Shown: one piece after another, positions 8,356 through 10,263 of the stretch
Position numbering within the stretch: the stretch's first letter is position 1
Layout: every line of letters begins with the position of its first letter
From: a virus
DNA: 10,456 bases
Strand: one strand, 5' to 3'
UHGV virus genome: UHGV-0112874
Made by a program: the position numbers and the translations under genes
Notes under the pieces: model-generated
What the model was told of the DNA's origin: nothing
The model's input: only the letters and a program-made list of their open reading frames with translations
The model's database searches: none

Positions 8356-8510
8356 GCATCCGTGCCACGCTTAGTCCATATCAACCACAGGGTGCTTCTG
8401 TGTGATCTTACGGAGTGAACAGTGTGACTTTCTCTGTGTGCAACTGGAGGTTTGGGGGCTGTGGCCGGTATTCAGTAATTGTCAGTAACTTGATGGTTTC
8501 ATTGAATAGA

Positions 8511-8547
8511 TAAAAAAGCCCACCAGCGAGGATTGAGCGCAGGTGGG
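8511..8547 (-). terminator. Hairpin with a following U-tract on the minus strand (minus-strand terminator, or bidirectional)
   Basis: CCCACC (8519-8524) pairs with GGTGGG (8542-8547), plus 3 inner pairs; A6 tract 8512-8517 on plus gives a U-run after the hairpin on the minus strand. Confidence 0.35.
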
Positions 8548-8703
8548 ATAAGTGTTTGCATGATTATTGTATACAGGTGTATGGCTCACCTTCTTCTCTT
8601 CAGGTTATGGATCATCGCATTGATGACGTTTTCATCTTAAATATTGTCGCTAATGTAGGTAAATATTTGATTATCCAATATTTGATCTGTTTCTCATTTT
8701 AAA

Positions 8704-8754
8704 GCGTCATCCCGTCGCTGTACATCACATCAGCGATGACGTTGTATTTATTCT
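8704..8754 (+). terminator. Imperfect hairpin followed by a T-rich tract; possible plus-strand terminator
   Basis: CGTCATC (8705-8711) pairs with GATGACG (8735-8741) and GCTG (8717-8720) with CAGC (8731-8734); followed by TTGTATTTATT. Confidence 0.3.
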
Positions 8755-8876
8755 GCTGAGCGTGCGGTTGTAATCAGTAACGGTTAGTCATGATACAGAT
8801 GCCCCCATGGACGACCCACCTGAGTCATGGCGAATTCAGATATCCAATGAAACTACCGTGGATGAGGGGGAGATAT

Positions 8877-9041
8877 ATGGTTAGGGAAGATACCCTGTAC
8901 AGGATATTATACAGCTATTTTTTTGAGCGGACATTCTCCGTGGCAACTGATCACATTAATAAACTGTTTTCTGTAGTTTGTATTGTTCTTGGGCTGGGTG
9001 CAACAGGCAGTTTTTTCCTGAATTGTCGGGTGCATTTATAA
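8877..9041 (+). CDS. Hypothetical small protein (54 aa) with a C-terminal hydrophobic segment
   Basis: ATG 8877 preceded by GGGGGAG (GGAG 4 nt upstream); MVREDTLYRILYSYFFERTFSVATDHINKLFSVVCIVLGLGATGSFFLNCRVHL. Lies in T/G-rich DNA where hydrophobic ORFs arise by chance, so confidence is low. Confidence 0.3.
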   Translation: MVREDTLYRILYSYFFERTFSVATDHINKLFSVVCIVLGLGATGSFFLNCRVHL

Positions 9042-9347
9042 TTAGTTCTGGTGTGGTGATTGGTGCTGACTGTTGCTGCAACATATACAATTCAGCGTTG
9101 AGCGCGCTTCGGTCATACAACTAAAGAAAGCAGCATGTCAAAGTAAACTTGAATGTTTTGCATGTTGATATACAGCGAATGCTAATGTAAACGGCGGTAG
9201 TAACATTTTACTAGGAAGAGCGCCTCTGAACTTGCTTGTAAAGACCTGATTTAGGTGGGCTATAAAGCATTAACCCACAAAAACGACAGAGATAATACCC
9301 TGAGTGTATCTGTGGGTTATCGCGGATGCCAATAATATATGACTATT

Positions 9348-9695
9348 CTATTTGGGTAGGGTTGTTATTTTTCTAAGTCCATACGGGCACATTGCGATAC
9401 AGCAACTTTTACTCTCAGGACACAGATTTCCTTTGGCTATTTTTCCTCCATGGCATTCATTCATATTATTAATTATATGCCAAAATACTTTGTTGAAAGG
9501 AGTTATGTTAAATATAGTGATAGGGTAAATTTTTTCGCCAATAATAACACCGTTGTTCACTTTTTTTATTTTGCTTGATGGAGGTAGAAATACATCAGAC
9601 TGATACCAGATAATTAGTTTTGTGTCACACCATACAATTGAAAATGAAATACCAGTTGAAGAGCATACAATTGTATCAATTACTAACAATTCCAT
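9348..9695 (-). CDS. Hypothetical AT-rich-codon protein with a Cys/His-rich C-terminus; antisense to the expected late transcription
   Basis: Track ORF 9348..9728 (126 aa). The internal ATG at 9695 (MELLVIDTIV...) has AAGGGA 6 nt upstream. C-terminus ...NECHGGKIAKGNLCPESKSCCIAMCPYGLRK. The long open frame in AT-rich DNA is mildly significant; no family recognised. Confidence 0.35.
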   Translation of the reverse strand: MELLVIDTIVCSSTGISFSIVWCDTKLIIWYQSDVFLPPSSKIKKVNNGVIIGEKIYPITIFNITPFNKVFWHIINNMNECHGGKIAKGNLCPESKSCCIAMCPYGLRKITTLPK

Positions 9696-10263
9696 GATTG
9701 GTCCCTTTAGTAAGTAGATGAAATACATGCTAATAGATTATAGGTGATACTTCTCGTAATTCATTGAAAAAGATCATTTTGTTGTTGGTGTTAACGGTGT
9801 GTATTGATTTGTGTGTATTTTTTTGAATTACTGATTTGTTTCTTAATTAATTTAAAACTATGGAAATATTGTTTTTGTTTATTCTTGGTTGATAAAGATA
9901 TATTTTTTATTTGGCTCTCATCTTTAAGTTGTGTTTGGTAATGGTGTAGAAATACACGGAAAATGTTGTGTGTATTTATTGCTGATAAGTTAATGGTAAA
10001 TGTGTTAATATATTGGTGATGTTATATTTTGATTGATTGTTTATATGGCATGAGGTGTGTATAACCATAATTTGAAGGTAGAAAGTTTTTTTACTATTGA
10101 TTCCGGAACTGTCGTCGCATAAAAATACATAATGGGATCGAAAAAATAACACTTTTATCATGTAGTGATTAATTGCTGTATGTGATACAGTATTAGCATG
10201 TATTGTTATTTTTATTGTTGTGTCATTGATATTCTTTTGTTTTCTGTTTTTAATAATCATACA

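Follow-up and report, generated by a model that had tools for sequence, protein, structure and literature searches.

The locus and its main features

The window (the whole stretch of DNA analysed here, 10,456 nucleotides of the virus genome UHGV-0112874) is the junction between the immunity and late regions of a lambdoid Escherichia coli prophage. Its right-hand part, 8252-10456, is a variable cargo slot in the late-operon leader of this prophage, which is of the Shiga toxin (Stx)-phage-like kind, and the order of genes is Q, tRNAs, slot, STnc100, esterase and lysis genes. The minus-strand gene at 9348-9695 is a divergent member of the IraM/IraL family and the sole well-supported protein gene of the slot. 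IraM and IraL bind RssB and stabilise sigma-S (PMC4045071, PMC10844676). The features on which the argument turns are these:

9348-9695, minus strand: IraM/IraL-family RssB anti-adaptor gene, 115 amino acids (NCBIfam model NF007393, 8TWD match, AlphaFold model, dN/dS)
9702-9775, minus strand: proximal control region with ribosome-binding site, -10 element and two conserved blocks; putative promoter function
9271-9319, minus strand: hairpin 30-75 nt 3' of the stop codon, probable terminator of the iraM-like gene
9729-10231: AT-rich spacer of about 500 bp between the start of the iraM-like gene and STnc100, about 27% GC and G/T-skewed
10232-10449, plus strand: STnc100 small RNA (RF02076), 123.8 bits against a gathering score of 47

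The first-pass annotation had described the region as AT-rich, T/G-skewed DNA with almost no credible open reading frames (ORFs). The composition was borne out, with GC content falling from 0.40-0.45 over 8400-9300 to 0.26-0.30 over 9450-10200, and the plus strand is indeed rich in G and T (GC skew up to +0.56 and AT skew down to -0.30 at 9751-10050). The three ORFs it had listed (8877-9041, 9348-9728 and 9976-10392) were also found in their places, but the second of them, doubted as an AT-codon ORF with a Cys/His-rich tail, contains a real gene at 9348-9695, an intact and selected one of the IraM anti-adaptor family.

Family identity and predicted structure

The NCBIfam model NF007393 scores the protein at 124.6 bits against a curated cutoff of 121, with model positions 1-111 of 114 covered. 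Because this alignment begins at residue 12 of the 126-residue ORF, we take the true product to be the 115 residues that start at the second ATG, 9695, which has an AAAGGGA ribosome-binding site just upstream (9708 to 9702), and reject the in-frame ATG at 9728 as the start. Over 108 residues the protein is 47% identical to IraM of E. coli K-12, and the solved IraM chain 8TWD, from the IraM-RssB complex, is matched at an E value of 1.9e-22.

An AlphaFold model of the 115-residue protein, built with an alignment of 39 homologues gathered by a full HMMER scan, reached a predicted local distance difference test (pLDDT) value of 89.1 and had its strands and helix in the expected order. The protein is thus predicted to have the IraM (PmrD-like) fold, an antiparallel beta-barrel with a flanking hairpin and helix. 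The top Foldseek match of the model was 8TWD_A (template modelling (TM) score 0.88, root-mean-square deviation 1.3 Å, 49% identity), followed by three PmrD structures with TM scores of 0.74-0.77. Towards the C-terminus, the cysteines C81, C92 and C98 and the motif C103-P104-Y105-G106 (CPYG) are conserved across 16-39 homologues. When the 14 RssB-contact residues of IraM (clusters I-III) were taken from PMC10844676 and located in our protein, seven were identical (I6, F18, W22, K26, W30, I61 and I64) and four conservatively replaced (I4L, T13S, Y62F and L75I).

As IraM and PmrD share one fold (PMC10844676), a different partner has to be considered, namely that the protein is a PmrD-like connector acting on another response regulator (e.g., PmrA, or a phage or host regulator) and not a stabiliser of sigma-S. 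Precomputed tables do list PF11183 PmrD for the window protein, unlike our own Pfam scan, possibly owing to a version difference; identity to IraM and IraL is only 45-50%, three of the 14 contact residues are changed, and the closest homologue (59%, from Citrobacter) adjoins lpxR-phoPQ. We nevertheless judge such a connector unlikely. Identity over the structural alignment is 49% to IraM against 15% to PmrD, the NCBIfam IraM model passes its cutoff, at 11 of the 14 interface positions the residue is kept or conservatively replaced, and the IraM-specific Cys-rich tail is present here and absent from the 85-residue PmrD.

Selection, distribution and relatives

The gene is intact and, as its substitutions indicate, under purifying selection. 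Against a second lineage, 89% identical and represented by plasmid p2 of E. coli strain cM8a, the coding sequence is 93.4% identical without a single indel, while the flanks are 70-89% identical with indels. Thirteen of the 23 substitutions in the coding sequence fall at third codon positions, and the ratio of nonsynonymous to synonymous substitution rates (dN/dS) against this lineage is 0.30. The second lineage was also found on many metagenome contigs, one of which holds an intact prophage context. The identical protein is encoded on 19 contigs from isolates and gut metagenomes, and a 93% protein variant on at least 24 contigs. Among 5,426 complete E. coli genomes the gene occurs in one, only as the 89% variant and on a plasmid.

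These data also bear on a plainer explanation, in which the slot is decaying junk that merely spaces Q and the tRNAs from the late genes, and the iraM-like ORF is carried along unexpressed, a pseudogene in the making. Relics do abound in its flanks (an aberrant tRNA, a decayed tRNA-Gly, a tnpB fragment and, upstream, a frameshifted gene for a 114-residue protein), the prophage in the contig L004 is without most structural genes, and two near-invariant family residues are substituted. However, the indel-free coding sequence with its dN/dS of 0.30, set in flanks that gather indels, the retention of ribosome-binding site, -10 element and terminator in both lineages, and an ORF unbroken in all of the 40-plus contigs examined together make this explanation improbable. 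The decayed moron proposed by the first-pass annotation is right in part: the tRNA and tnpB relics agree with it, and the intact, selected iraM-like gene does not.

In the phylogeny the window protein falls outside the group formed by E. coli IraM, IraL and the Stx2c-phage proteins, to which it is 45-50% identical, while the members of that group are 62-75% identical to one another. Its nearest species-level relative is a chromosomal gene of Citrobacter sp. ANG330 (59% identical), which occupies an AT-rich islet with purB on one side and lpxR-phoP-phoQ on the other (L032, 3084-9613).

The plasmid p2 of cM8a (L001; 87 kb) was found to carry pieces of the same prophage late leader, scrambled by insertion sequences (IS), at 8929-10418 and 15655-16824. 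The AT-rich insert with tRNAs and the iraM-STnc100 cassette lie apart from each other; the cassette there has an internally deleted IS605-family derivative, in which the left end is joined to the 3' part of tnpB.

Predicted expression signals of the gene

A perfect -10 element, TATAAT (9742 to 9737), lies about 45 nt upstream of the ATG within the conserved block ATCACCTATAAT, which is common to the homologue of phage 2851 although the upstream regions are otherwise unalignable. A second block, GATCTTTTTCAATGAATTA (9775 to 9757 on the minus strand), is likewise common to the 59% Citrobacter homologue, where the surrounding DNA cannot be aligned. Its shared form, GATCTTTTTCAATGA(A/G)TTA (9757-9775, minus strand), includes a Dam site (GATC) and is a candidate regulator-binding site.

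On the other side of the gene, the hairpin at 9271-9319 (repeat I10) consists of an inner stem followed by the U tract UCGUUUUUGU, with a predicted RNA folding energy of -29.3 kcal/mol (z = -3.6). A tRNA-like or IS-end origin of this hairpin was considered and set aside, as only weak matches were obtained. The ribosome-binding site, -10 element and terminator are all kept in both lineages. With a conserved TATAAT, ribosome-binding site and terminator hairpin, all predicted from the sequence, on the strand opposite to the late operon, the gene is probably an autonomous moron. The first-pass annotation had expected cargo controlled by Q; since late transcription driven by Q runs against the gene, and promoter-like and terminator elements of its own flank it, this expectation probably does not hold.

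No similarity was detected between the AT-rich upstream region in the window and the upstream region of K-12 iraM. The candidate PhoP box TGTTTATTCTTGGTTGA at 9876-9892, with one mismatch, was rejected, there being seven such sites in the window against 4.5 expected. Silencing of the region by H-NS, raised in the first-pass annotation, is plausible by analogy with K-12 iraM, for which H-NS regulation was reportedly described by Battesti et al. in 2012.

The spacer, the inverted repeat and STnc100

No part of the cassette is less conserved than the AT-rich spacer, where identity drops to 70-80% with indels at 9816-9995. The two arms of a perfect 14-nt inverted repeat (9722-9735 and 10191-10204) enclose it; none of 300 local shuffles reached this length. 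The proximal arm overlies the predicted transcription start of iraM, and the distal arm comes after a TGnTACAGT extended -10-like site that faces STnc100. Possibly the repeat is a shared operator, or it serves long-range RNA pairing.

An arrangement of this kind also brings to mind an invertible promoter switch like fimS, in which the 455-bp AT-rich segment between the arms would drive iraM or STnc100 alternately. The repeat is beyond chance, there are -10-like elements just inside each arm, and in some contigs a serine recombinase gene adjoins the cassette. Yet 21 of 21 independent cassette-bearing contigs are colinear and none is inverted, the proximal arm is part of the 5' sequence common to the phage 2851 homologue, which is without the distal arm, and the distal arm is mismatched in the second lineage. 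We therefore consider such a switch very improbable indeed.

STnc100 itself, which answers the expectation of a small RNA in the region, stands at the right edge. It is full-length (model positions 1-206), with its terminator at 10420-10437. In Stx-like phages (75/02, 2851, JLK-2012 and O157 prophages) it precedes a nanS-p-type esterase, and the window copy keeps this usual place of the STnc100/PasD prophage small RNAs (RF02076) upstream of the esterase; it differs from them in that, leftwards of about 10255, cassette DNA stands in place of the usual promoter region upstream (TTGAC... block).

The 138-residue minus-strand ORF at 9976-10392 overlaps STnc100 in antisense, has no family match and was rejected as coding. 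In the 89% lineage, indels of 1 nt and 2 nt shift its frame for about 20 codons and the ORF stays open, as an A/C-rich, stop-poor strand gives by chance, and we accordingly hold it to be spurious. What had been noted as a low-complexity minus-strand ORF is thus an artefact of strand composition.

The recurring motif GAAATACA, also pointed out earlier, does occur in exactly three copies (9587, 9720 and 9949) in the whole window, against about 0.5 expected, which is mildly unusual (three of 200 shuffles reach three). It is not conserved, however: the third copy is gone in the 89% lineage, and one copy falls within the coding sequence, so that its recurrence is probably due to chance or composition.

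The left part of the mosaic

The left part of the slot and the tRNA cluster before it comprise the following:

8022-8098, plus strand: tRNA(CAU) of the phage tRNA cluster
8100-8173, plus strand: aberrant tRNA with a 2-nt "anticodon" (ARAGORN)
8175-8251, plus strand: tRNA-Arg(UCU) of the phage tRNA cluster
8254-8325, plus strand: decayed tRNA-Gly-like relic, a fourth cluster member by homology
8331-8350, plus strand: intrinsic terminator closing the tRNA cluster, an 8-bp stem and then a T run
8515-8855, minus strand: conserved non-coding block with a leftward intrinsic terminator, in five loci
8877-9041, plus strand: 54-residue ORF with the strong ribosome-binding site GAGGGGGAG and a hydrophobic C-terminal half
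9044-9210, plus strand: relic of the 3' part of tnpB (insQ), IS200/IS605 family, by nucleotide similarity

The aberrant tRNA is homologous to the tRNA-Arg of O157 prophages and has deletions relative to it, for which reason it is probably a pseudo-tRNA. The relic at 8254-8325 is 77.6% identical to an annotated tRNA-Gly in a prophage of E. coli A34, and neither ARAGORN nor Rfam calls it. The terminator that had been reported after the tRNAs was located at 8331-8350. The spacer that adjoins it (8346-8442) has about 80% identity with the DNA following the tRNAs in lambdoid prophages of about 800 E. coli genomes.

Conserved blocks, which the first-pass annotation had proposed to seek by comparative alignment, did emerge among relatives in an otherwise variable slot. 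The block at 8515-8855 is 77-93% identical in five loci, always between tRNAs and STnc100, and some of these prophages are without iraM. Its leftward terminator is conserved (hairpin at 8518-8547, U run from 8517 to 8512 on the minus strand), and it has no conserved ORF on either strand. No covariation was detected in the block, for which the sequences were too few and too much alike. The block may be the source of a leftward small RNA, or may shield Q and the tRNAs from transcription in the leftward direction.

The 54-residue ORF has no Pfam or NCBIfam family. Identity with TciB/DUF3927 (PF13064) was rejected, with no match at E<=10 where TciB of E2865, as a control, gave 62 bits. One homologue, 91% identical and 59 residues long, differs at the C-terminus; the two differ by seven nucleotides only, too few for the pN/pS of about 0.4 to inform.

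The block common to the second lineage begins at a sharp breakpoint, 9036, which the tnpB relic follows. This relic is 75% identical in nucleotides (E 2e-26) to an IS in phage RCS47, with weak colinear similarity extending to about 9286. Its translated match covers only about 25 residues with a stop codon within, and so no open reading frame is kept. Compared with an IS200/IS605 element, the relic aligns to the zinc-finger/RuvC-III part of tnpB (insQ), and the difference is that the window holds a broken fragment of 167 nt, with no intact tnpB ORF and no recognisable ends. As the second lineage also keeps the left end of the IS, it holds an internally deleted IS derivative.

Taken together with STnc100, these elements allow that the main products of the slot are unannotated RNAs and micro-proteins (a leftward small RNA from 8515-8855, the 54-residue membrane peptide and STnc100), with the spacer as a shared control region. 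For this one may cite the conserved leftward terminator of a block present in five loci, prophages without iraM included, the strong ribosome-binding site of the 54-residue ORF and its open frame in the 91% relative, the bona fide family of STnc100, and the 14-nt inverted repeat beside promoter-like -10 elements facing both ways. On the other hand, no Rfam family was found in 8252-10231 even at E<=1, covariation lends no support, the best leftward promoter candidate has a -35 that is not conserved, and the 54-residue ORF is without a family and has a C-terminus that differs between lineages. We hold this to be possible but doubtful as an account of the main products, and it is compatible with an IraM-like function of the gene.

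The prophage and its variable slot

Leftwards of the slot, the genes of the early and immunity regions were assigned as follows:

143-967, minus strand: yfdQ-like gene
2117-2809, minus strand: S24 repressor
between the S24 repressor and YmfL/CII in the gene list: cro-like gene
3160-3711: YmfL/CII
3708-5189: Ash/Rha ORF, 493 amino acids
5621-6385: KilA-N/DUF968
6399-7151: Q antiterminator (PF03589)
8022-8251, plus strand: tRNA cluster

Many E. coli genomes have prophages about 96% identical over 1 to about 7207 and the tRNA cluster. Contigs with an identical right-hand part run on into a SASA/DUF6645 esterase, DUF1378 and a holin, all on the strand of Q, which places the gene described here in the late-operon leader; in one such contig the prophage adjoins E. 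coli dusA (99.5% identical), pointing to E. coli as the host. The full order of Q, tRNAs, iraM (antisense), STnc100, esterase, DUF1378 and holin was seen in three contigs (L004, L005 and L067).

The interval between Q/tRNAs and STnc100 with its esterase has very different contents in related phages. It holds stx1 in phage 75/02, stx2c in phage 2851 and tciA-tciB (DUF3927) in JLK-2012 and E2865; it measures merely about 120 nt in an O157 prophage and about 1.98 kb in the window. The first-pass annotation had recognised here the position where stx sits in other phages, and this proved correct, with stx1, stx2c, tciA-tciB/DUF3927 or almost nothing found in relatives; its suggestion of horizontally acquired, AT-rich moron DNA is supported by the same variable slot. 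Variable presence and deviant composition, by which morons are recognised, coincide at this locus, as the slot contents differ among homologous prophages and the iraM-like gene with its upstream DNA has 27-34% GC against about 48% for the phage.

Two observations concern the rest of the prophage. Inside the Ash/Rha ORF, at 4068-4256 on the plus strand, Rfam matches to isrK (60 bits) and to C4 antisense RNA (68 bits) were obtained, which suggests that the early region carries a c4/isrK-antirepressor module of the P1/P7 or Gifsy type. Between Q and the tRNAs there is a second AT-rich insert (7207-8021), found in one of the 5,426 complete E. coli genomes. Within it, at 7357-7701 on the minus strand, lies a broken gene for a small signal-peptide protein that ends after 43 codons in the window; a 90%-identical copy on plasmid p2 of cM8a has an intact ORF of 114 amino acids, and this protein matched no Pfam or NCBIfam family.

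Comparison with known systems

According to the literature, e14 carries iraM and a genomic island carries iraL, and some phage and plasmid copies are already labelled IraM in databases. With IraM of E. coli K-12 (b1160; 8TWD), the window protein shares the family hidden Markov model, the fold of PmrD-like barrel and helix, the Cys-rich CPYG tail and most RssB-contact residues. Both genes are small, AT-rich and prophage-associated, with AT-rich DNA upstream. The window protein is nevertheless only 47-48% identical, is eight residues longer at the C-terminus and carries W3L and P82H; its gene lies inside a lambdoid late leader whereas K-12 iraM lies beside e14, and it is without a conserved PhoP box.

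IraL, the paralogue of CFT073 and Shigella (PMC4045071), is likewise a horizontally acquired anti-adaptor, and in E. albertii and E. coli ECMA0423 the IraL-type genes, too, are antisense morons by tRNAs and STnc100 in a lambdoid late leader. It differs from the window protein in sequence (45% identity) and in promoter and 5' untranslated region, and it stands after STnc100 (convergent) whereas the window gene stands before it (divergent). Because IraL-type genes lie after STnc100 and tRNAs and the window gene before STnc100, the IraM/IraL family has been captured repeatedly at this hotspot. The two IraL-type genes (E. albertii, L035, 4464-5482; E. coli ECMA0423, L036, 5001-5551) have a 5' untranslated region that matches the published IraL transcript, and in E. 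albertii two STnc100 copies flank the gene.

An unannotated iraM-like ORF of Stx2c and Stx2a phages (e.g., phage 2851) is also an antisense moron between Q/tRNAs and the esterase, and has the ATCACCTATAAT block, about 45 nt before the start codon, in common with the window gene. It is 43-48% identical to the window protein. Its place is downstream of both stx2c and STnc100, and the DNA upstream of it, unlike that of the window gene, is not AT-rich (48% GC). PmrD, the PhoP-activated connector that protects PmrA~P, has the same fold (TM score 0.74-0.77), but it is about 15% identical, lacks the Cys-rich tail and has another partner.

A predicted anti-adaptor of the lysogen

We regard it as probable that the slot is a mosaic insert with an intact iraM-like anti-adaptor gene, which would be expressed from its own promoter, bind RssB and raise RpoS in the lysogen. 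In the lysogen, the gene would be transcribed from its own predicted promoter. This promoter is probably silenced by H-NS and would need an activator or a stress signal, a dependence suggested by the 27% GC of the upstream DNA together with the weak -35. The protein would then bind the adaptor RssB and block the delivery of sigma-S to ClpXP, so that RpoS would rise; raised RpoS would be a lysogenic-conversion trait affecting stress tolerance. Upon induction, Q-antiterminated late transcription would run antisense through the gene, colliding with it, and should dampen its expression. Sequestration of RssB, raising RpoS in lysogens, is the most likely action of the protein as far as homology and the modelled structure can tell.

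Several observations weigh against this anti-adaptor function. The protein is just 45-50% identical to characterised members; three RssB-contact residues are changed (C14T, I42K and H63N), and the near-invariant Trp3 and Pro82 are replaced by Leu and His. IraL is described in the literature as contacting RssB differently from IraM. Our Pfam scan of the protein gave no family even at E<=10. The -35 element is poor, and a simple promoter scan did not flag the site, although a weak -35 fits an activator-dependent or H-NS-repressed promoter. The best PhoP-box-like site, that at 9876-9892, is deleted or changed in the 89% lineage, and the neighbouring DNA is clearly decaying.

One may go further and imagine the iraM-like gene, the 455-bp spacer and STnc100 as one mobile stress-control cassette, with divergent promoters sharing the 14-nt operator-like sequence and, at its flank, an IS605-family relic that carried it between prophage and plasmid. 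The antisense placement in the late leader would then give a lysogeny-specific stabilisation of sigma-S, turned off at induction by Q-driven convergent transcription. We give this fuller scheme little credence.

In E. coli, the level of RpoS determines stress tolerance, persistence and virulence trade-offs, and strain differences in RpoS control are partly due to accessory anti-adaptors such as IraL. The locus described here adds a third, deeply divergent Escherichia lineage to the IraM/IraL family, whose protein is encoded on contigs of isolate genomes and human gut metagenomes and is rare among complete E. coli genomes. Furthermore, genes of the IraM family, IraL included, recur as antisense cargo in the late-leader slot that carries stx in Stx-type prophages. 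The locus would thus be a predicted case in which a prophage tunes the general stress response, one that extends known biology with no new mechanism.

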